The notes below the pieces were generated by a model that was not told the origin of the DNA, did not search any database, and worked only from the letters and a program-made list of their open reading frames with translations. 64,000 bases of DNA from Saccostrea cucullata (lineage: Eukaryota), in the NCBI RefSeq assembly GCF_032062105.1, contig NW_026933012.1, forward strand, positions 434,001 through 498,000, read 5' to 3'. Shown in pieces: positions 9,301-60,115 of the stretch. A program made the translations under genes and the position numbers. Position 1 is the first letter of the stretch, and each line of letters begins with the position of its first letter.

Positions 9301-10619
9301 ATTTCCATGCTGAACACTAGATATCGGAGACCCTTGTTGATCTTGAAAGAATGAATGATCCTGTCTTCTTTGAATCAACTGGTTGCCCTGTCGACCTTGA
9401 ATTTTGGAGTGTTCCAGACTTTGAAAGTTTGGGGGTCCTTGTTGACTTTGACGAACTGATTCATGGAGTTGACTTTGAAAATTTGAAGATCCCTGTTGAC
9501 TTTGAAGAACTGATTCATGGGGTTGACTTTGAAAATTTGGAGGGCCTTGTTGACTTTCAGTTATTGAATGGTGAGGTTGACCTGGAAAATTTGGGGGGCC
9601 TTGTTGATTTTGAATTATTGGATGGTGAGGTTGACCTGGAAAATTCGGGGGGCCTTGTTGATTTTGAATTATTGGATGGTGAGATTGACCTGGAAAATTC
9701 GAAGGTCCTTGTTGACTTTGAATTATTGGATGTTGAGGTTGACCTGGAAAATTTGAGGGTCCTTGTTGACGTTGAAGATTGAGACGATGAGGTTGATCTT
9801 GAGTTACTAAGCTTCCTGATTGAGATTGAAGAAATGGATGGTGAGGATTTTGTTGACCCTGATTTGAGTTTCTCTGCTGACCTCCGAAAGAAGAGTGTCT
9901 CTGTTGTAAGTTATGAATTGGTTGAGAAATTGGTGATTGTGAATTTGTTGTACTTCCAGAGGACACGAAATGTTCCACAAATTTTTTTCCAAAATTGTCC
10001 GATTTAAAAGCTCCATTGCCCTGTCTTGTCGATGGTAGTTGGTTTTCTCTGGTGAAATGGCTATTTGACTGCAAGTTGGATGGATTCGCGAACAAATCGA
10101 AATTGTGTGGATCATTGGGTTCCCCAAAAGAACCAAACCTGGATAAACCTAACACAATAAAACTAAAATGAAATCAATTTAAGTATCTCTACAGGAGGCT
10201 CGTAATAAAAAATACAATGAAATGGTATACTTCGCTACAAATTAACTTTAAACAAGTTTTCTGTAAAGGGCAAGGAATACAAAAAATTGTCAAGCGTGTA
10301 AAACAATGACAAATGCATTCCATTAACCGAATTGTATTGCATTTTGTCTTGGTAATTAATGTTTACCTATAGCAACTGCTGTTATCAAGAAGCGTGCAAA
10401 AACTGTACAAATAAATTAAATGCGTAATGGGCATATTTCCCAGTGACATTTTTGCTTAAAAATGTCATTGCTTTGAATCTTACCTTGGTGATTGTTCGAT
10501 GAAGAGGATGAAGATGAAGATGAAGAAGAGGATGAATGAGAACGTGAAGAGCTTGCAATCTGTGATAGTGTGTCACGTAACAGCGCCACCAATAACAGAC
10601 CAGTTATCCATTTCATCAT
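3352..10619 (-). CDS. Secreted CAP/SCP-domain (CRISP/venom allergen 5-like) protein 1, about 973 aa: signal peptide, poly-Ser, Q/G/P/H-rich low-complexity region, CAP, hinge, EGF-ShKT-EGF-ShKT
   Basis: 11 coding exons, all GT-AG and phase-consistent (2922 nt): 10619-10484, 10148-8410, 8116-7943, 7600-7516, 7321-7149, 6216-6122, 5985-5906, 5681-5583, 4242-4120, 3980-3882, 3470-3352. CAP motifs HNQLRG, KWDDRLA..AQKWANQC, GQNLA, WWNE, IGHFVQ, LVGCG, YYVCNYAPG. EGF-like CNNGG..CQCEC..YAGPNC; ShKT-like ..CPYMCGRC and ..CPHRCKMC. Confidence 0.92.
6715..6960 (-). mobile_element. Degenerate Penelope-like 3' fragment in an intron of CAP gene 1
   Basis: GAGCAGAACCCATATGGACCT...GAAGGAATAAGCATCCTGT...CATCCGCCGTG matches the family at 2475, 20780 and 40690. 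Confidence 0.55.
9391..9768 (-). repeat. Coding tandem repeat: 54-bp unit (18 aa, consensus QQGPPNFPGQPHHPIIQN), 7 clear copies
   Basis: GCCTTGTTGA recurs at 9598 and 9652; the translated units are visible in ORF 8398..10155. Confidence 0.92.
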
Positions 10620-45271: not shown

Positions 45272-47724
45272 AAAACTCGGTGTGTCCATTTCTTCGGTGT
45301 GATGAAGAGAAGCAAGGATGGGTTTGCTCTCGCCGAAAAGATGAAGTTAAATATTGTGCTTGTGATAGTCAGTGCCATCTGTTCCAAGATTGCTGTGAAG
45401 ATAATTTTAACAGTGACATATATTTTCATTCTTACAATTATGATTCAATGATGGACTTCAATGAAACTGACTATGAGTACATGATGAAGGTTTTTAAGTA
45501 TAGTAGTTGCATATCAATTAAGTTTCAGCGTCCCAGTACATCTGAAATTAAGATAATTAGCATTAAGGTAATTAATCAATGTGCCTCTCATTACACTGGC
45601 TTACTTCGAACAAAATGTTCATCTAATTATCAGATTCTGAACATTTTAACATCGGTAACGGTAGGCATACACGACTTGGTATTTAGAAATCCATATTGTG
45701 CTCTCTGCCATGGATATAACGTAAAGGATCTCCAACTTTGGGACACATCTGTACTCTGTCCTGAAACCTACAAAGGTATCCCTAAAACCGACATTCAGAA
45801 GCTATCTAAATATTGTGAACTGGTTCATACTTTTAAGGAAAATCAGAACTTTCGATACTGTGTACATCCTTTTATCTCGGAGAAATTTCTCAGTGTAGAC
45901 CAAAGAGAAGAAACGATAGATGACATTTTATGCTTTGGATACATATCCCCTCTCACCAATGAAAACAAGAATATAAGTTTCAGAAATAAAAACTGCGCAA
46001 TCGCTTCAAGATACAACCTTTCTCTCTTACAGCCTTTTAGAGAAATGCGAAATATACAACTGATATCTTCAATAATGGACATGAACATTCTGTTTCGTTT
46101 TACAGGTAATGGGTTTGACAATAGAAACCCTTCTAAATGTGCCTCAAATTTGACATATGACCCAATCACCGGACTTTGCGCAAGTCTAATCTGTCCACAC
46201 GGATCTATCAAAAGAGCTAAATCATGCATCTACGATAATCCTAACTACGAATTCATTTATCAGCCATACTTAACAGATACGTCTGAAAACAATTCTTTAA
46301 TGTATTTTTATCTTAGGAACAAAAACTTTGATGATTCACAACGGACTTTTGTCATTAGTGCTGATGAAGGATATGTGTTTGATAACGTCATCAAATGCCT
46401 AAATTTAATATTTCTGGAGATGAATTTTTCATCAGAGGTATTTCAATTGCAAAATTTTCCACCGAATGAGTCCCTGATTTGTGAGGAAGGGGATCTAGAA
46501 ACTCTCAGAGCCGACGAATTGCTTGAAACAAAAGATGACTTTTTTCGCATTCTGTACAACCAGAAGACCATTCAAATTCCTTCTGGGAAAATTCGATTTT
46601 CTATCACAGCCAAAATTTTAAAAACTGACGCTATGGTAGTGATTGGAGGATTTTCCAATGTAACGTTCTTCTTTTGCACTAACAGATCTATTTTGAAATG
46701 CCCTACCTTTCTAACTTCATATAAAGCAAAGGAATATACACTAACCAACAATTCAGTTCACTTCAATTTAAGTTCAGTTGTGTTAATGAGCGGTCAATAT
46801 AAAATAATTAATTCTATTTTGTATATCTGTCACAAAAAGAACCCTTATTCTGATGATAATGTGCTGAATTTAATTTTGACTACAGTGTTCTTTTCTATTT
46901 CGCTATTCTGTTTATTACTAGCCATGTTTCTACAAATCAATATAAGGGGGATACAGACTTGCCCAGCCAAATGCTTTCTCTCATTTTCATTGTCGTGGTT
47001 CATCGCTCAGTTTTCGTTCACCCTTCCTCCATTTCTACCGTCACGAGTTTGTCTGACATTTGCCATGTTGTTGCATTATCTATGGCTATGTATATTTTCG
47101 TGGTCAAGCATTCTGTCCTTTGATTTGGTAAAGTCATTAAATGCATGCTCTAAAACTTTGAAAAGGGAATTCAAGAACAACAGTTTGTTTGTTAAGTACT
47201 GTATCGTTGGCTGGGGGCTACCGCTGCTTATTGTTGGTTTAAGTAATGTTCTCGAAATCAGTTTAAGTACTTTTACCTTGCAATATGGGGCTAGAAACAT
47301 TTGCTGGATAGGAAATAGTGATGCGCTGCTTTTAGCTTATATTTTACCAGCAAGTACTTTCCTATTTTTTAACATGATATGCCTAGCAGTGTCACTCCAT
47401 GGTTTGGAAATTGCTAAGCGTAATTCTAGAAATCTACAAAAAACGAGGAAGGACAGGCAGAGGTGGTTGATGTATCTTCAGATGTTTTTCCTCTGTGGTG
47501 GATGTTGGATTTTTGCTTACGTGGCAAATAATGTGTCTCTTTTATGGATGCATACATTAAATCTGATATTAAATGGCAGTCAGGGTGTTTTCATCCTCAT
47601 AATGACAACACGAGACTCTAAGGTGAAAAGGTGGATAAGAATTAAAATGAAATGCTTAGAACCAGATAATTCTAATACTTCCCAAAGTAACAGCGGTGGT
47701 GGAACTATTAGCACGAAATTATGA
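45272..47724 (+). CDS. Family-B (adhesion/Methuselah-like) 7TM GPCR with a somatomedin-B-like Cys-rich ectodomain, copy B (main exon)
   Basis: Acceptor TTTCACAG at 45271 (phase 1) and an open frame of 814+ codons. SMB-like CACDSQCHLFQDCCED, FRNPYCALCHG, FRNKNCA, seven TM segments, HYLWLCIFSW, IVGWGLP, CWIGN, LNGSQGVFI. No GPS motif before TM1. Confidence 0.85.
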
Positions 47725-48432
47725 GACAGAAAGATTTCATAGTGAGAAAAAAAAATATTTCCCCGAAGAAAATCCATCTTTATATGCTTATTTCTTTACA
47801 TATACAAGTTAGTACATGTTTTTTTTAAATCTTTATTCATAAAATTGAATTTTACTTTTTATCCTTTTTCACCTTTTCTGTTATTGTAACATTAAATTAA
47901 TCACTTGACCTGATTAATGAGATGATATTGTATGCTGAAATTATTTTTGGTAAAAGAAATATTTGCTAAAATAATTCATTGCTATTGTAGGGATAAAAAA
48001 ACCTTTGTCTTCTGTCCAATCCTTTTCACTTTCTGTAATTAAAAATTTATATATATCAAAAATTGTTATTCATTGTTTAGAGTTCAATCAAAGTTATCTA
48101 TTCATATTAAGTATATTAAGTTTATTTGTAACCAATAGACAATATCTATGTTCATAAAGTCTTAGGTCTTCCTACAATCTTTTGAAATTTTCGTGAGCAC
48201 TTACTGTGCCCCTGGATATGCCGATCTTTTTATATTCCTATGAAGCAGAATTTCATTCATAAGCTTCTATTCAGATTCCTGGCCCCAGAATCATAAAACA
48301 TCCTTATACTTAATTAAAATTTTTAATCTCCAGTAAAATATTTATTATTTATCGAATTTATCTCTAATTTTGCAAATAACAACACAATATTGTAAAACAG
48401 TTTAATTTTGACCTATTTGACTTCTACAATAT

Positions 48433-48700
48433 TATCATCTATTTTATGCATATAAAATCAGATGACTTTATTTTACGGGAAAAGGTATTAATTTTTTGGT
48501 CGGGATCCGCCTGCGGCCTTGGGTATATATAAAATTTGTATATTCGGAAAGCTCAAGGGATCAACATTCTTTTTTATTAACCATTTTAAAAATGTTAAAA
48601 AAATATTTTCATCAACTTGCTGGATACAGAGTAGGTTGAATTTTTCTTTGTCAAGTTTTTTTCATAATATTTGTAAGAAATTTTTTACATCTGCCTTAAA
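48433..48700 (+). repeat. Ngaro split direct repeat A1 (partner A2 at ~53590-53816)
   Basis: TATCATCTATTTTATGCATATAAAATCAGATGACTTT..GGGAAAAGGTATTAATTTTTTGGTCGGGATC.GCCTGCGGCCTTGGGTATATATAA..TTTTCATCAACTTGCTGGATACAGAGTAGGTTGAAT is present at both sites. Confidence 0.9.
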
Positions 48701-48935
48701 TAAATTTAAATTTTGGTTAATGGATAATAAAGTTTGTATGTTCTTAATACTTTTTTAATCCAACGTATATATTTTCTCTGGATTGTGCTGGATTTACAGC
48801 CCGATTAAATGTGACACGACAGCCATTTTGAATATATTGTTGCAAATTTTTGCCCGTAGCAAATTTATCAAAAAATTTGTATCTGGTGAATTACAATTAG
48901 TAATTTTTGTTTGTTATTTACTCTAACGAGCGGAA

Positions 48936-49949
48936 ATGCCTCCCAAAAATAAGACTAAGCGGAATTGCAGACTGAGAGACAACGAGGGCAAAGCATCAAG
49001 GTCAAAGAGGTCAAGACAAGAGCGACCAGCGGTAGCGATAGAGGTTGACGATAATCATACAGTTCAGGAACCAGGTCCTTCAGGAAGCATCGCCGCCCAA
49101 GAGAATGTAGTTGGTGCCAGAAAGTCAAACTCTACCCCACTGGCCCCAGCACCTGTGCCTGCTTTGGCAATTGAATCTCAATCAGGTACAAGCATTGGTT
49201 ATGAGAATCAATATGTAGATAGCATTCATTCACTATTGGCTAGCAATGTCTCTAACTCATTGAAGTCTAAAATCATTAGTTCAGCATACATAGAGATTAG
49301 TTTGTTGCTTGATAACACTTCCCTGACAGAATCTTCAGAGAAAAAAATATTTTTTAATGAAAAAGGGGAGTTGGTCACAAGAGAGGTTGTTAAACCTAGC
49401 AATAAGATTCAAAATATCAGTAGATGGACAGATGCATTCTTAGTTTACTCTAGCATTTATGCTTCGGCCCACCCAGAATCTTATCAGGGTTTGCTGAAAT
49501 ATTTACATGACATAAGACTCGGGGCATCAAGATGTGGGGAGGGGGATTTGGGATGGAAGAAATATGACGAGCAGTTTCGACTTCGCCGCAGTATCGATCC
49601 CACCATAGATTGGTCTAAAGTAGACTATGAGTTATGGTTGATGTTTATGTCATCATCCCCACAATCTAAACTAACAATTAAACCAAACAGCCCAGCCTAC
49701 AACAAGTGCTATAATTTCAACTTCAAGGGTCATTGTGACAGACCTTCTTGCCAGTACATGCACAAGTGCATTAAATGTTCTGGGAGTCATCCACAATATT
49801 TGTGCCCTCAATCTAATTATGTTGGGAAGTCCACAAGTTACCCAAGGGTACAACTGCAGGGACAGCCTCAAGTTAGACCCCTTTTGTCACACCCAACCCA
49901 AACCCCAAGACCACAAAGGTATATGGGCCCTAGGAAATTCCCCTATTAA
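48936..49949 (+). CDS. Ngaro ORF1, gag-like protein (337 aa)
   Basis: W..AF..Y, GWKKYDEQFR, DWSKVDYELW and a C-terminal Cys/His knuckle CYNFN..GHC....CQYMHKCIKC..SHP..LC. Confidence 0.85.
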   Translation: MPPKNKTKRNCRLRDNEGKASRSKRSRQERPAVAIEVDDNHTVQEPGPSGSIAAQENVVGARKSNSTPLAPAPVPALAIESQSGTSIGYENQYVDSIHSLLASNVSNSLKSKIISSAYIEISLLLDNTSLTESSEKKIFFNEKGELVTREVVKPSNKIQNISRWTDAFLVYSSIYASAHPESYQGLLKYLHDIRLGASRCGEGDLGWKKYDEQFRLRRSIDPTIDWSKVDYELWLMFMSSSPQSKLTIKPNSPAYNKCYNFNFKGHCDRPSCQYMHKCIKCSGSHPQYLCPQSNYVGKSTSYPRVQLQGQPQVRPLLSHPTQTPRPQRYMGPRKFPY

Positions 49950-51532
49950 TGTTGAAAAGTTAAATGAATATTTGCAGCCATATCCAGACAAATATGCTGC
50001 TAATTATATAAAAAATGGGTTTTCAAAGGGTTTTGAAATAAATTATACAGGCCCAAGGTGTCATGTGTTTTCAAAAAATCTTAAGTCTGCAAGTGAACAC
50101 CATGATGAGTTGATGGAAAAGATAAGTAAGGAAATAAAGCTTGGCCGAATCATGGGTCCTTTTGATCAACTTCCAATTTCTAACCTCCATATTTCACCAG
50201 TTGGCATTGTCCCTAAATCTGATGGAGGGTGGCGAATGATTACCCATTTATCCTATCCTAGTTCCCAGGGGATCAACGACTTTATAGACCCAGATTTATG
50301 TACAGTGCAGTATGCATCTTTTGATGGTGTAGTCAATATGATTGCAAATTTGGGAAGGGGCGCATTGATAGGTAAGATGGATATTAAAAGTGCTTTTCGT
50401 TTAGTTCCGAAATCCAGGGGATTTTGACTTGTTAGGTTTCTCTGTAGATGGATTATATTACATAGATAAATGCCTTCCCATGGGTTGTTCCATTAGTTGC
50501 AGAATTTGGGAAACATTTGCAACTTTTCTACACTGGCTTGCTCAGTTCAAGTCTGGATTGAATACATTAGATCATTATTTAGACGATTTCCTTTTTGCAG
50601 GTAGGTCTGGTAGTGATGAATGTGAAATTCTAATGTCTACTTTTAGTAACTTAGCTGGGGATTTAGGGGTACCTCTAGCCCATGAGAAAACTTCTGGTCC
50701 AACGACAAAATTAATATTTCTAGGTTTTGAAATTGATACACTAGAGATGACAATTAAGATCCCAGAAGCTAAGTTAGAAATCCTGAAGAGTCTGATTGAA
50801 AATTTTTTAGATAGGGAAAAAGTTACACTGCAAGAAATGCAGTCTTTAGTTGGAATGCTCAATTTTTTCTCAAAGGCAATCAGATCTAGTAGAGCTTTTA
50901 TTCGAAGAATGTATGATGCATTTAGTGGAGTTTTCAAGCCACATCATCATATAAGATTATCAGTAGGAATTAAAAGTGACCTTAGAATGTGGCTGGTGTT
51001 CTTGAACCATTTCAATGGGGTTGCATATTTTCCTAATACTGTATGGGAAGATTCTAGCATTTTACAGTTATTTACAGATAGTGCAGGTTCAGGTCATTTA
51101 GGTTGTGGGGGTTACTTTAGTGGAAGTTGGTTTTTTCTCCAATGGCCAAAACATTGGAACAACCAAGAAATTTTGAGAGACATGACTTTTCTTGAGCTCA
51201 TACCAGTAGTTTTAGCAATAGAGATATGGGGACCTAGGTTGTTACATAAAAAAGTTCAGTTTCATGTTGATAACCTTTCATTAGTTAGTGTCATCAATAC
51301 CCAATCTTCCAAGTCCAAAAGAGTGATGGAATTGGTAAGACATTTGGTTCTTAGACTGATGATCAACAATGTTATATTTAGGGCAAATCACATTAGTAGC
51401 TTGGATAACAAAATTGCAGATTCTATTTCTCGCAAACAGTGGTTCCGCTTCAAGACGTTAGCACCAGAGGCAAGCACCAGACCAGACCCTCTTCCAGTAG
51501 AATTAGTCAACATGATTTACAGATTCAAATGA
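49735..51532 (+). pseudogene. Ngaro ORF2, reverse transcriptase/RNase H with one frameshift near 50412
   Basis: SPVGIVPK..GWRMITHLS and KMDIKSAFRLVP in one frame; DFDLLGF, DKCLPMGCSISC, HYLDDFLF, FLGFEID and RNase H motifs FTDSAG, LELIPV, HVDN, IADSISR in the next frame. Confidence 0.9.
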
Positions 51533-52497
51533 ATAAATTGCTAGATGCTTCAATCTCTGAAAACACTAAGACAGCATACGAAACAGGACAAAATTCATTT
51601 TATAATTTCCGGAAAGAATTTGGGTACGAAATTTCATGGCCCCCACCTCTTAGAGATGTTGTTCACTTTGTTGCTTATCTGTCACTTAAGAAGTGTTCCT
51701 ATGCTACGGCAAAATCTTATCTATCTTCTATTAGTTTTCAATGCAAAATTCACAATTGGGTTGATGAAACAAAGAACTTTCTGGTTGTAAAGGTTCTTGA
51801 GGGTATGAGAAGAACTGGTAGGTCTGCAGATGCAAGGCTACCTATAACCTTGCAGTTGCTTACTAAAGTTGTTAGGGTTTTATCGAGCATTTGTAGCAAT
51901 AGTTATGAAACAAAATTGTTCAGAGCTGCTTATATATTAGCCTTCTTTGGTTTTCTCAGAATAGGGGAATTCACATTGTCTACTGGTAATAGTGTTCATA
52001 CAATTTTACAAGTGACTGATGTTCAATTTGAAGCTAATTACTCCAAGGTTTTTGTACACATAAGAATGTCAAAATGTGATCAGGATAGAAAGGGGGTTTC
52101 TTTAGCCATTGATAAAAGTGGGGGAATCCTGTGTCCAGTAGCAAGTTTGATAGATTATCTTGCAGTAAGACCAAAAATTAAAGGGCCATTATTTATCCAC
52201 TGTGGAAAAAATCCCCTTACCAGATATCAGTTCTCTTCGGTTTTGAAAAAATCACTTCAGGTTTTGGGGGTTCAGGGACATTATAGGGCCCATTCATTTT
52301 GTATCGGGGCAGCCACTGCAGCATTTGAAGCGGGGTGTTCACAAGATGTCATAATGGAAGCAGGGCGTTGGAAGTCTAGGGCATACAAATCACACATAAG
52401 ATGTCCTATTTGGCAGATGTTGGGGCGAATAAGTTGTAATTTTGTAAATATAACAAGAATTATTCAAATTATTGCATACATTTGTAGAGGTCTCTGA
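51529..52497 (+). CDS. Ngaro ORF3, tyrosine recombinase (catalytic Arg and Tyr apparently substituted)
   Basis: RLPIT, AFFGFLRIGEF, SKCDQ, LCPV, GPLF, HSFCIGAAT (consensus HSFRIG), GRWKSRAYKSHIR (consensus ..YIR). The frame is open from 51439; the likely ATG is 51529. Confidence 0.88.
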   Translation: MNKLLDASISENTKTAYETGQNSFYNFRKEFGYEISWPPPLRDVVHFVAYLSLKKCSYATAKSYLSSISFQCKIHNWVDETKNFLVVKVLEGMRRTGRSADARLPITLQLLTKVVRVLSSICSNSYETKLFRAAYILAFFGFLRIGEFTLSTGNSVHTILQVTDVQFEANYSKVFVHIRMSKCDQDRKGVSLAIDKSGGILCPVASLIDYLAVRPKIKGPLFIHCGKNPLTRYQFSSVLKKSLQVLGVQGHYRAHSFCIGAATAAFEAGCSQDVIMEAGRWKSRAYKSHIRCPIWQMLGRISCNFVNITRIIQIIAYICRGL

Positions 52498-53083
52498 AGT
52501 TAAAGTCTGGTGTGTGGGCTCCTCTATTATTAAGAATGCAATGATGGCATCAGTATGCAGACCGGGGGGAACAAATCTTGGATTGGATAGATTGAAAATA
52601 AATATCTGGTGGCAGGGATATTCAGGTTTGAATTTTTTGGGACTTAAAAGAAAGCTTTTTTTCTCACAAAAAGAGGAATCCCCAGAATTTTTGGTTATTC
52701 ACTGTGGGGCAAACGATTTAGGATCAATTGATCTGTTTACTCTAAAGATTATGAAGAAAATTAAATCCCATCTAAAGATTATCAAGACTCGCTTTCCACA
52801 TTCTACACTTGTTTGGTCACAGATGCTGCCACGAAATAAATGGAGGTATTCGGGGGACAATAAAGCAATGGAGCGTTGTCTTAAGACCAATAGGGTAGCT
52901 GCTTCATTAGTGTTAGAGTTGGGGGGTTGTTACATAAAGTACCCTGATTTATTGAAAAACATATCGCAATTTCTGTTGCCAGATGGAGTACACCTCAATG
53001 ACCTAGGAAATAAACTCTTTCTAAATAATATCCAAGGGGGGTTAGAATTTTTCCTGTCAAAGCAAGGAAATGTGTATCCTTAA
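52472..53083 (+). CDS. Ngaro ORF4, SGNH/GDSL-type hydrolase
   Basis: Block I VWCVGSSII, block III IHCGAND and block V DGVHL. There is no ATG upstream of block I in this frame. Confidence 0.85.
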   Translation: MHTFVEVSEVKVWCVGSSIIKNAMMASVCRPGGTNLGLDRLKINIWWQGYSGLNFLGLKRKLFFSQKEESPEFLVIHCGANDLGSIDLFTLKIMKKIKSHLKIIKTRFPHSTLVWSQMLPRNKWRYSGDNKAMERCLKTNRVAASLVLELGGCYIKYPDLLKNISQFLLPDGVHLNDLGNKLFLNNIQGGLEFFLSKQGNVYP

Positions 53084-53189
53084 ACAAAACATCAAGAACA
53101 TTGGTCCGTGGGGGCTTTTTGTCAGTTGCTTGGGTGCTCCCCCATGTGTGGGATGACTGCGAACTCTCCTTCGGTTGTTCGCTGTCATG

Positions 53190-54355
53190 TGGCGTTTGCG
53201 CACACCAAAGCAACTGAGGCCTACATAAACTTTGTATTGTTGTGAAGTTTTCACCATTGAACTGTGAAGGGGGTTGAAATGTTGAACCATTTTATATGTA
53301 AAATATTTGCTGATATGTTGATATAATTTGTTTTGTGCTTGAATTGTGCATATAACTAATTACACTTAAATAAGTAACCTTAAATAAGTAACCACCCGCG
53401 GTTTACCCGGGGTGGTCATTTTTTGCACATATGACTTGTTTGTGTTGATGAATTTTGTTGAATTTGTGTGGGTTTGCCCAAAAGTTGTGTGTATTAATTG
53501 GCATCCCACAAATTACTATGCCACGGCCAATGTTCGCCAAAATAAAGGTTAAAACAAACATTTTGTTGTCATTTCCCTGTATAAATAATATCATCTATTT
53601 TATGCATATAAAATCAGATGACTTTTTCATCAACTTGGGAAAAGGTATTAATTTTTTGGTCGGGATCGGCCTGCGGCCTTGGGTATATATAAGTCGGAAA
53701 GCTCGGGATCAACATTCTTTTCATCAACTTGCTGGATACAGAGTAGGTTGAATATTTCTTTGTCAAGTTTTTTCATAATATTTGTAAGAAAAATTTTGCG
53801 ATGAATTGCCTTAAATATCCCACCCACCCATTCCCATAATTTGGAGTTTAAATTATTGCAAATTTGGTTAGTTGTGCTGGCTTTTTCTTTTTATTTTACA
53901 GAATCTGTTGCACTGGATGTCGTCTTCGTGAAATATGTCGTGGCATAACCTTACAGGAATGGCGTTTGCGCACACCAAAGCAACTGAGGCCTACAGCATA
54001 ATAAACTTTGTATTGTTGTGAAGTTTTCACCATTGAACTGTGAAGGGGGTTGAAATGTTGAACCATTTTATATGTAAAATATTTGCTGATATGTTGATAT
54101 AATTTGTTTTGTGCTTGAATTGTGCATATAACTAATTACACTTAAATAAGTAACCTTAAATAAGTAACCACCCGCGGTTTACCCGGGGTGGTCATTTTTT
54201 GCACATATGACTTGTTTGTGTTGATGAATTTTGTTGAATTTGTGTGGGTTTGCCCAAAAGTTGTGTGTATTAATTGGCATCCCACAAATTACTATGCCAC
54301 GGCCAATGTTCGCCAAAATAAAGGTTAAAACAAACATTTTGTTGTCATTTCCCTG
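53190..54355 (+). repeat. Ngaro 3' B1-A2-B2 repeat region
   Basis: B1 (53190-53579, 390 bp) and B2 (53960-54355, 396 bp) look identical by eye apart from a 6-bp indel; A2 lies between them. Confidence 0.95.
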
Positions 54356-56525: not shown

Positions 56526-59289
56526 ATGATTTTCCGAATTTTAGGTTTCCTTTACGGTTTAGATAATATTCAAGCTGCCACGTTTGAAACTACAGGGTCT
56601 TTTTATCCGATTAAATCATTTTCCATATCATCTAATACAACATTATTAAGGAATCAAGGGAACATTTCAGGTTTGCAAATTTACCATTGTAGAACCCATT
56701 CGTTTCATGGAATTTTAATTATATTAAGATACATTTACTAGTATTTGAATTATTCAAATCTTGTAATCCTTGATTTTATCAAATGTATTTTTATTTCAAA
56801 AATTTACATATGTTTGCTTAATTTCAGATTGCCCTTATCTTAAATGTGACCCTGGAATTAGAGATGAATGGAGTTGCACAGGCAAAAAACATGTCATTCG
56901 ATACTGCGCTTGTGATAGACAGTGCAATCTGTTCCACGATTGTTGCGAGGATAGCTTCGATAAAGAGCTTTTTCTTCAACAAATTTCAAATAAATCAACA
57001 ACGAATTACAGTAATTCGGAATCTGACTATATGCTACAAGTTAACACCTACAGTGGATGCTTTTCGATAGAGGCAAAGAATATCACTGGAAATCAGACAA
57101 AAATAATTACTGTTAAATTAATTAATCAATGTCCATCTCATTACGTCGGCAATCTTAATGCAAAATGTTCATCAGGTTATAAAATTCTGAATATTATAAC
57201 TTCCGTCAAGTCAGGGATACACCATTTAATGTTTATAAATCCCTTCTGTGCACTCTGTCATGGGTATAAGAAAAGAGATATGTTACTTTGGGACTCTTCT
57301 GTGCATTGTCCAAAGAAATATAAATGCATCCCCAAATTTGACATTCAAAGACTATCTGAACATTGTGCACTGGTTTATACTCTCAAAGAAGAGGGAAACC
57401 TTCGATACTGTCTCGACACAAACACGTCAAATGTATCCCCTGGGTCGATGTTTTTATCAAATAAGAGTACGGATCATAATCTATGCAATGGCTACATTTC
57501 TCTTCTGTTTGATAAAAATGAGAAGATATATTTCAGAAATAAGCACTGTGCTCTGGCAGTCCGACACAATATTTCACAACTGGAGCCAGTCATTGATAGT
57601 CATCCTAACAAAGGGGTACCTGCTGAAATGGACATGAATATCTTATTCCGTTTTACTGGAGAGGATATTGAAATCAGCAATACTGCAAATAAGTGTTCCC
57701 CAGGCTTGACATATGACCAAGTAACTGGGCTGTGTTCTAATTTAATCTGTCCAGTAGGATTTTTCAGAGAAGAGCAAAGATGTATTCACAATGAGTCAAG
57801 TTATGAATTTATACGTAAGCCGAAAGTTCCTAATTCGCTGGAAACCTTTTATCGCACTGATGTTTATATTTTACATGAAAATATGAATTCTTCATTTGAT
57901 ATAGAGAAAATGTCTCTAATCAGATTAGGTGTCGATGACACAGATGTTTTTCAAAAGAATATGAAACATTTAACAGAAATATTTTCCGAAATGAATACTT
58001 CATCAGATTCATTTATTTTACAAAATTTTCCTCCGAGCCAGTCACTAAATTGTGATAGGGGTATTCTTGAGAGTTTCACGACGGATGAATTCTCCGTTTC
58101 ATGGAATGGATCTCTTGATGTTGTTTTTAAGCGGAAGTTAATTTCCGTCCCTTTGTCTAGGATTCGTTTTTCATTAACTGTCATAATAACCAAATATCCT
58201 AATACAACCTTAAAGTTTACAAATGGACATTTTTACTTCTGTAGAATGAATAATATTTTAGAATGTTCATCATTTCTTACTTCATATGAGTCTGACACAT
58301 ACCAAATAGTCAACAATTTTGTCTACTTTAATTTAAGTTCTACCATTTTAAATAGTAAACAATATCTAATTATCAATTCAATTTTGTATATTTGTCACAC
58401 TGAAAAAACAAATTCTGAAAAGTATACATTAACTTTGATTTTGACATTGGTATTCTTTTCTATATCATTATCTTGCCTTTTGCTTTCAATTCTTCTTCAA
58501 ATTATGATTAGAGGGATACAGACTTGCCCAGCAAAATGTTTTCTCTCGTTTTCTTTATCTTGGTTTTTCGCACAATTTGGTTTTATTCTTCCATCTTTTT
58601 TGCCACCAGAAGTCTGTTTCTGGTTTGCTTTATCTTTACATTATTTATGGCTTTGCATATTCTCTTGGTCAAGCGTATTAGCTTTTGATCTGGTGAAAAC
58701 CCTGGCCGTTTGCTCCAAAACTCTCAAGCGGGAATTCATGAACAATAGTTTGTTTGTCAGATACTCTGTTATAGGTTGGGGGCTGCCTTTCGTCATTGTT
58801 TCGGTGAGTTATACTCTTGATATCAATCTTTCTTCATTTGAAATGCAATATGGAGCACGGGGTACATGTTGGGTGGGAAATGCAGATGCGTTACTTCTAA
58901 CTTTTATTATTCCTACTTGCATTTCTACTTTTTTCAATATGATTTGTCTTGGGGTATCTCTCCATGGTTTGGAAATTGCGAAGAAAAATACCCAAAATTT
59001 ACAAAAGACACAGAAAGAAAAACAGAGGTGGGTGATGTATCTTCAGATGTTTTTCTTCTGTGGCGGATCTTGGATATTGGCTTATGTTGCAAATAATATA
59101 TCTATGACGTGGCTTCACATTACGAATATTGTTTTGAATGGCTGTCAGGGAGTTTGTATTTTAATCATAACGACTAAAGACTCTAAAGTTCGAAAGTGGA
59201 TAAGCTTTCAATTGAATTCGGTTACATTTCAAACCTCACAGAATAGCAATAGTCAAACCCACAATGACATTGACAATACAAAAATATGA
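56526..59289 (+). CDS. Family-B (adhesion/Methuselah-like) 7TM GPCR with a somatomedin-B-like Cys-rich ectodomain, copy C, about 868 aa
   Basis: Two exons joined in phase 1: 56526-56670 (MIFRILGFLYGLDNIQAA..., donor CAG|GTTTG) and 56828-59289 (acceptor TTTCAG). CACDRQCNLFHDCCED, FINPFCALCHG and seven TM segments; collinear with copy B. Exon 1 is less certain than exon 2. Confidence 0.88.
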
Positions 59290-59648
59290 GTTTAAAAGTT
59301 TGCTGTTCAAGGATTAATTTTTAAAGTGTTTTCTTTAAATTAAATTGGTTGGTTATCTGTTTTATTATATACCTAATGTGTATCACCCAATTTTACTGTT
59401 GAATTTACGCTTTCACGTGACGTCGTGATCCGATTTTCCGGATCACCAACATGTTCTTTTTTGAATCCATATCACCACTCTCTGAAACTGATGACGTAGT
59501 ACGCAGAAACATGACGTTGTTTTTCTTGCGCGTTAAAAAGTCCCTTGTTATTATGCTTTGTTTTATGGATAAATATTATACAATTTATCTCTTAAGTTTT
59601 ATTTAGGTATATTTTGCTAGTTATGAGGGGGTATATAATAAATTTATC

Positions 59649-59805
59649 ATTATAACAGTAACTTGATCCGAAGAGCCGTATCACGTCTCGTTGACAGGCG
59701 CGGATCATCAGATCAAACTCGACGCTTCGCGTCTCGTTAGATCTGATGATCCGCGCCTGTCAACTCGACGTGATACGACCCTTCGGATCAAGTTACTGTT
59801 ATAAT
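59649..59805. repeat. 157-bp imperfect palindrome (77-bp arms, 3-nt loop), probably the core of a non-autonomous element starting near 59390
   Basis: Arms pair around centre 59727 with 7 mismatches and no indels. Confidence 0.92.
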
Positions 59806-60115
59806 AATATATATATACTTTTTTCGCGGCGAACAAGGATCTAGTCCGGGCCTCCCGATCGCTATGCTGATGCCCTAGAACGAGACTTCTGTGACCGATC
59901 CTTAAAATGCAGTATTCCACTTGGTACTTTCATTTAACAATAGTAAACTGGACATTTCTATCCTATCTGGACCTCTACCGAATCAATAATTAACATAAGA
60001 CCTATAGTAGTGCTTTTACTTTTACAGCAAAAGTTAGATATAGTCAACTTAAAATATATTTTCCAAATGACAAATATCAATGTGCTTTTGAATGTCATTG
60101 AATTTAACCAGTCAT

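Follow-up and report, generated by a model that had tools for sequence, protein, structure and literature searches.

A strand-marked terminal hairpin in a CryptonA-type element of Saccostrea cucullata, likely part of a recombination site formed by one folded strand

Cryptons of the CryptonA type have been described, in the passages of the literature drawn on here, as compact elements that encode a single DUF3504 tyrosine recombinase (YR) with the residues R-H-R-Y, measure about 2.0-2.3 kb, insert without target duplication and give rise to many short derivatives (PMC3212892, PMC13465315), published lengths ranging from 1,248 to 2,289 bp (Kojima and Jurka 2011, PMC3212892). In all these respects they resemble the element family presented below. 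Concerning their ends, the 2011 survey, in the sections consulted, marks every CryptonA row as 'n.d.' and reports that terminal repeats were not found in animal Cryptons (PMC3212892), and the 2026 Glomhopper paper reports no detectable repeats, the strings 'hairpin' and 'palindrom' not occurring in it (PMC13465315). There is no settled account of how Cryptons move: the prevailing model invokes a double-stranded circle, and the one active Crypton observed excises cleanly and gains copies, clean empty sites plus copy gain being described for CryptonF-1_cRei of Chlamydomonas, a member of another lineage (10.1101/2022.05.23.493040). No description of hairpin ends or of single-stranded DNA (ssDNA) recombination in Cryptons was found in the open literature; Repbase entries, most supplements and subscription journals (Goodwin 2003) lie outside this scope and may describe such palindromes.

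The palindrome studied here occupies 59649..59805 of the window, that is, of the whole analysed stretch of 64,000 nucleotides of AT-rich, animal-type DNA from S. cucullata (contig NW_026933012.1, positions 434,001 to 498,000). A sequence-only reading of the window had described it as two 77-bp arms with a TTC loop and seven mismatches, and all positions were confirmed: the arms run over 59649-59725 and 59729-59805 around the loop at 59726-59728 (plus strand), and the mismatches are A.C at 59674/59780, C.A at 59676/59778, an outer TC/CT tandem at 59688-89/59765-66, A.A at 59715/59739 and an inner TC/CT tandem at 59719-20/59734-35. On the minus strand the same 77-bp hairpin presents, again as that reading had it, two tandem G.A motifs (CGAG/CGAG), two G.T wobbles, one T.T and a GC-GAA-GC cap, and this strand will be called the GA strand. 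The core formed by both tandems and the loop (59688..59766, minus strand) is kept in the autonomous copy L104 and in most copies.

Folding yields a z-score of about -21 on either strand, with none of 200 shuffles folding equally well. In a nearest-neighbour model the window hairpin (176 nt) reaches -83.1 kcal/mol on the minus strand vs -77.5 on the plus strand, the values for the L104 hairpin being -90.8 vs -90.0 kcal/mol. With ViennaRNA the GA strand was favoured in 15 of 17 hairpins and the other strand in two, the mean difference being -2.9 kcal/mol. Nearest-neighbour energies probably underestimate how much sheared pairs and mini-loops contribute to stability. The earlier claim that the palindrome is built to fold on one strand only was overstated, since both strands fold strongly in silico, about 3 kcal/mol apart on average, and the strand asymmetry looks like a recognition feature rather than an on/off fold. 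A miRNA-precursor identity was rejected, all Rfam matches being sub-threshold.

The hairpin is the right end of a young non-autonomous element of 453 bp, complete at 59362..59814 (plus strand), which is an internal-deletion derivative, of CryptonA type, of a YR element of about 2.26 kb. On the GA strand, the 12-nt far-end box TTATTATATACC (59362..59373, plus strand) forms the element's 3' terminus, and this start is identical in all full copies as well as in the autonomous L333 and L148. On the opposite side the hairpin is followed by the terminal 9 nt AATATATAT (59806..59814, plus strand), a right end invariant among copies, with the crossover after 59814. These boundaries were derived from family loci, and loose ends of reads or contigs from other samples fall at 59360-59362 and 59814. 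DNA searches with the element returned about 1,260 first-look candidates; the 19-nt apex had 338 exact matches in the same genome against 0 for a control, and the genome holds at least 338 copies. The hairpin is the end of a multicopy mobile element, not the single-copy locus that would have refuted the earlier reading. Median divergence is 1.6% at stable columns (37 copies). The hairpin was present in 30 of 30 copies chosen by the body alone, two of them with a 460-bp insert in between, and mobile copies devoid of it numbered 0 among these 30. The further small palindromes noticed in the flank, GTGATCCG..CGGATCAC at 59425-59446 and TCACGTGA at 59413-59420, do exist and belong to the body of the same element, the former being shared by the two 5' subfamilies and the autonomous copies.

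Empty sites, which had been proposed as a means to define the ends, were found as paralogous sites for L006, L038, L042 and L046, and they show no target duplication. In addition, the L333 site is found empty, with its length preserved, in sequencing run X1. In the sequencing runs nothing bridged an empty allele of the insertion in the window, and no circle junction was present among the sequencing-run joints shown. Where two copies lie head to tail, the right end is joined to the far end with zero extra bases (16 of 16 junctions). An origin of these tandem dimers from multimeric circles was rejected, overlapping units being 80-94% alike and often of different subfamilies; because the units differ, the dimers are best read as repeated insertions. 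As to which unit of a dimer is the younger, the two orders stood at 7 vs 4 (p=0.55), three more dimers being ties and two having no shared columns, and the order of insertion that the folded-strand model predicts found no confirmation. RNA reads cover both strands of the element alike, and the YR frame is scarcely covered by the reads of a single raw RNA run.

Rearranged copies were observed as well. Locus L024 (1170-2290) carries three copies arranged head-to-head and tail-to-tail, two of them with deletions into the hairpin, and in the apex of L031 the right flank has been copied in inverted orientation into the inner hairpin side, as expected of fold-back synthesis. L050, L109, L258 and L313 carry the apex, or the hairpin as a whole, in the opposite orientation with respect to the body; recombination of one arm with the other is the presumed cause. 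No amplified apex-inverted subfamily was seen, the usual inner arm being present in 91 of the first 100 listed of 293 matches; five of these first 100 have the letters of the other arm, through local conversion or because the copy is broken. In the interior of the YR of L333 (943-2805), contig depth was about 100-280 vs 8.6 for the receptor gene in run X1, and about 3-21 vs 7.3 in run X3; autonomous copy number may differ between samples, depth being no copy number.

As for its surroundings, the element is inserted 72 bp past the stop of a single-frame receptor gene of the secretin family (7tm_2), which encodes 840 aa with a cysteine-rich N-terminus (56767-59289). A stretch at about 45318-45849, 11,550 bp upstream, is 70-72% similar to this receptor and suggests a tandem paralogue. 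Between them, at 48428-54300, the frame of a tyrosine recombinase (51409-52497) precedes that of a GDSL/SGNH hydrolase (52454-53083), with four repeats arranged as A1 48428-48661, B1 53225-53524, A2 53584-53773 and B2 54001-54300; the whole resembles a retroelement of the Ngaro type, in which direct repeats are split, and has no relation to the hairpin element. The segment 60118-60420, rich in TTCATGAA and internally repeated, is deeply covered by other samples and probably represents a further repeat family, and a 54-bp tandem array lies at 9363-9856 within a G-skewed stretch.

The sequence-only reading had suggested that six of the seven mismatches were under selection. This stands for the two CGAG/CGAG tandems and falls for the two wobbles and the A.A, which, being absent from the autonomous L104 hairpin, are accidents of the family. 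The L104 hairpin is perfectly paired apart from its two tandems and loop; in many copies the A.A is paired or changed, and in several it is either paired or next to a compensatory C-G. Neighbouring pairs co-vary on both arms among L104, L148 and the window copy. Invariance of the mismatches and the loop had been proposed as a check, and from one family to the next the CGAG/CGAG mismatches and the mini-loop are indeed invariant, with stems that change completely. Arm-to-arm conversion has erased a tandem in L047, L060, L103, L327, L331 and L332, the masters keeping theirs; since conversion removes tandems in scattered copies, there is pressure to lose them.

A DUF3504 search of the same genome gave 151 matches, among which 30 short loci and 80 longer stretches, partly overlapping, were inspected. 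Six loci are long versions of the window element built around a DUF3504 frame (L104, L103, L110, L111/L148, L109 and L158), with full-length copies of 2,259 bp (L333:759-3017, at the L104 place) and 2,243 bp (L148:3480-5722). Positions 1-172 of the window element match L333/L104 at 92% and positions 166-453 at 84%, the window element being a derivative that shares both ends with the autonomous form. The frame of L111 is unbroken (522 aa), matches DUF3504 (E=1.5e-24) and Phage_integrase (E=1.3e-11), and displays the catalytic residues R245 K278 H373 R376 H399 Y408 (R-K-H-R-H-Y); L104 carries the same gene split over two frames. The protein model of L111 (mean pLDDT 72.7) has its best fold matches in QRICH1 and Cre, Cre ranking above the integron integrase IntI (2a3v), and the fold is accordingly predicted to be Cre-like. 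Homologues occur in bivalves, gastropods, hemichordates and cnidarians under KIAA1958-, ZMYM- or QRICH1-like names, the closest named ones being from oysters, and no YR relative was found in viral contigs. The YR is the only frame of the full-length copies L333 and L148, which hold no RT, DDE or GCR1_C domain. With a single DUF3504 YR, a length of about 2-2.3 kb, shared ends and no target-site duplication, the autonomous partner can be assigned to the CryptonA type. The YR tree combined frames of the same genome with database homologues. Of the two kinds of mobile element proposed at the outset, a Crypton with its tyrosine recombinase is what the longer copies revealed, and the HUH/REP logic finds no support in full-length copies that hold a YR frame only.

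The same end design recurs in other DUF3504 families. Among 110 DUF3504 loci, 77 hairpins lay within 800 nt of the YR match (68 loci) and fell into 25 sequence clusters, 17 of which carry GA/GA tandems (TC/TC on the other face) under unrelated stems. Such tandems make up 31 of the 48 two-base mismatches in the representatives, with about 2 in 144 expected by chance; 52 of 62 half-motifs read CGAG, and in none of the 12 clusters with at least two tandems are these spread over both faces. The GA face bears a GNA, GNNA, CTTG or TTT loop in 14 of 14 decidable clusters. CTTG and TTT loops are stable in DNA. GCGNAGC and GTTA loops, as well as CGAG blocks, have been described as stable DNA motifs, weaker as RNA, and the RNA counterpart r(GCGAAAGC) melts far lower, according to sections of two papers (PMC13037366, PMC10085684).

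Polarity is equally constant. On the GA strand the hairpin is the element's 5' end in 16 of 17 clusters, the exception, L189, being a different nested element. Relative to the coding strand, the GA face is sense in nine clusters and antisense in eight, which argues against an mRNA structure. The recombinases of the tandem-bearing clusters are about 20-45% identical, and the side of the hairpin with respect to the YR switches essentially once on the tree, an ancient event. Because the families share ancestry and the switch is essentially single, binomial p-values overstate independence, and the argument lies in conservation across recombinases about 20-45% identical, not in independent trials. 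The remaining eight of 25 clusters lack GA tandems, some of them being unrelated palindromes and two, F122 and F125, being true element ends with GAA loops. These two (loci L122-L126) belong to a distant DUF3504 clade in which small bulges replace the G.A tandems beside hairpin and GAA loop, F122 also keeping the far-end complement and the +2 shift presented below.

Outside this genome, 29 of 80 loci from a metagenome collection show a hairpin near the YR, with about three further families of like design (L247, L266 and L283 types) and some nested or apex-inverted copies. A raw count of the pattern CGAG..GCGAAGC..CGAG gave 74 vs 192 for a reversed control and was rejected as evidence, only the folding of individual loci being counted; by eye, a long hairpin coincides with the motif in about 18 of 30 pattern loci. 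The high control count may be explained by a further class of repeats (L063, L065, L066, L069, L074, L080, L086, L088), in which short clusters rich in GCGAG/GCGAAGC follow TTATA and no long hairpin is present.

The sequence-only reading missed that 12 nt immediately inside the hairpin, at 59630-59641, are complementary to the far end. Together with a 7-nt spacer (59642-59648) they form an internal complement of the joined ends (59630..59648, minus strand), the junction strand having 9 nt where the internal complement has its 7-nt spacer. A far-end complement of 9-16 nt was present in every multi-copy family checked except F068, whose far end was not reached. With the far end joined to the hairpin end, the junction strand exceeds the internal one by 2 nt in 12 of 13 families scored by script; the remaining family shows +2 by eye together with a further bulge.

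The target around the insertion (59352..59820) has T before the element and A-T-A-C-T after it, fitting T^D-K-A-Y-Y, with no duplication. Across the family, T precedes the element in 38 of 42 left flanks, and the right flanks (n=61) read D, K (60/61), A (56/61), Y (59/61) and Y (50/61), the first base being A in 26, T in 23 and G in 12. A weaker A-T-A is seen at -10 to -8 (23, 32 and 26 of 42; p=3e-8 for T at -9). The target half-sites (A-T-A ... T-A-T) thus lie 8 nt apart, with the crossover 1 nt inside the spacer, a placement that corresponds to one of the two cuts in loxP. In other families T occupies position 8 in 48 of 69 rows, about eight of these rows being internal sites that matched the pattern. 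End and target overlap by one T at most. Regarding the element's own site, the duplex junction would offer 9 nt and the duplex internal copy 7 nt, and we infer that only the folded strand combines both into a 9/7 site.

Taken together, these observations make the hairpin a likely part of a recombination site that forms only when the GA strand folds on itself. In the model we propose, the GA strand would become single-stranded during replication or as an excised circle and then fold, its hairpin stem being prolonged by a duplex in which the joined ends pair with the internal complement. Between its recombinase boxes the folded site would have strands of unequal length, 9 and 7 nt, against 8 and 8 in the target. 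The recombinase would then exchange the GA strand alone between folded site and duplex target, leaving a junction for replication to resolve, as in attC x attI and CTXphi recombination. The G.A blocks and the mini-loop may label this strand and start its folding. Run backwards, the reaction would bring about excision and could free a circle, the element persisting in one daughter; sites left cleanly empty, along with a gain in copies, would follow. Several results count against this model: both strands fold in ViennaRNA, the dimer order was left unconfirmed, YR transcripts are scarce in the single RNA run, eight of 25 clusters lack GA tandems, and the fold search prefers Cre to IntI.

In the main alternative, the apex would serve replication, its mismatches and loop acting on ssDNA as a primase start or for SSB exclusion so that the excised strand is made duplex, with a recombinase that reads the foot boxes only. 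GAA and GTTA mini-hairpins are indeed reported, in the part of the source used here, at complementary-strand origins of ssDNA phages (phage G4) and as poor SSB binders (PMC13037366); the tandems lie far from the crossover, about 50 and 80 nt in the window element, and F122 and F125 keep the loop without them. We nevertheless regard such a signal as unlikely, because it leaves the internal complement and its constant +2 shift unexplained and because a primase-like frame was not seen in the element, and it is partly compatible with recombination of a folded GA strand. Still less probable is a palindrome that works as a binding-site array, a cruciform or an RNA structure in an element that moves as a double-stranded circle by two-strand exchange. 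This agrees with the published Crypton model, as presented in passages of PMC3212892, with a Cre-like protein and with a target made of two half-sites. However, the end-target overlap is at most 1 nt, not 4-6, the spacer of the duplex junction has 9 nt vs 8 in targets, and strand-specific mismatches would be meaningless in duplex DNA; for the RNA variant, eight of 17 clusters have an antisense GA face, and RNA reads are alike on both strands.

Before the YR partner appeared, the element had also been considered as a Helentron, a reading then abandoned. A short asymmetric inverted repeat (59362-59373 vs 59630-59641) followed by a terminal stem-loop, without duplication, does recall a non-autonomous HLE2/Helentron moved by a RepHel HUH enzyme, as outlined in portions of PMC11417382. 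Yet the full-length copies found hold a YR frame and none of RepHel size, T-T insertion is not the rule (T follows the element in 23 of 61 sites) and the stem measures 77 bp, which largely refutes this origin and leaves it very little credit. Least credible of all is a neutral fold-back or MITE-like palindrome whose mismatches arose by chance in one master. Invariance within one young family with 1.6% median divergence would reflect descent only, and the wobbles and the A.A are indeed master-copy accidents; for the tandems and the loop, however, this account is refuted by the recurrence of CGAG/CGAG and of the loop class under unrelated stems in the 17 clusters with divergent recombinases.

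Returning to the folded GA strand, we lean, with some reserve, towards a broader proposal in which animal CryptonA elements practise a eukaryotic form of folded-ssDNA recombination. A Cre-like enzyme would recombine a 9/7-bulged, G.A-marked hairpin with a degenerate 8/8 duplex target by single strand exchange, allowing copy-out without DDE, HUH or RT; the chemistry of integrons would have been reinvented, and this would be the ancestral activity of the KIAA1958/ZMYM/QRICH1 domain. If true, eukaryotes would have their own version of the ssDNA recombination known from integrons and CTXphi, and CGAG blocks, like GNA mini-hairpins, would act as genetic signals in nature. Crypton ends could then be found by a rule that does not depend on sequence, and a tool for inserting ssDNA without duplication might be derived. 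The end design supplies exact substrates (folded strand, bulge, target spacing), together with an intact enzyme frame, for an oligonucleotide assay.

CryptonA elements themselves are already known, and what the present analysis adds is the terminal hairpin design, the +2 rule, the 8-nt target geometry, the polarity counts and an autonomous partner with the same hairpin. Compared with published CryptonA, the window element stands out by its long terminal hairpin, its internal complement of the joined ends and its strand-specific mismatches. CryptonF differs in having a 5-nt terminal motif that matches the target, according to the part of the report used (10.1101/2022.05.23.493040), and a 4-6-bp terminal direct repeat matching the target, as in CryptonF and CryptonS, is absent here, where the overlap is at most one T. 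The att sites of Vibrio SE elements are described, in the passage concerned, as having no inverted-repeat structure (PMC9345347). DIRS1 also combines a YR with an internal region complementary to the joined ends (excerpts of PMC13465315; see also PMC7192593); unlike DIRS1, the present family has no reverse transcriptase, RNase H or long inverted terminal repeats, and its loops are of DNA type.

The nearest parallels may be sought among bacterial systems. In CTXphi, attP(+) folds as a single strand that builds a duplex site, and XerC/D exchange one strand pair (sections of PMC3442271 and PMC4792948); there, host recombinases act on a fixed dif target through a stem without extrahelical marks, whereas here the target is degenerate and the enzyme is encoded by the element. 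Integron attC x attI recombination by IntI would be alike in relying on a YR, on a site defined by structure and not by sequence, on one strand chosen through imperfect pairing, on minimal homology at the crossover and on a single exchange resolved by replication (passages of PMC2727003 and PMC4792948). In the present hairpins, too, structure is conserved and sequence is not, with marks on one strand. The differences are that the window element belongs to a eukaryotic transposon with its own YR, predicted from its model to be closer to Cre than to IntI, that its site would be completed by pairing with the far end, and that tandem G.A pairs, mini-loops and a bulge of 2 nt take the place of the single extrahelical bases that mark attC.
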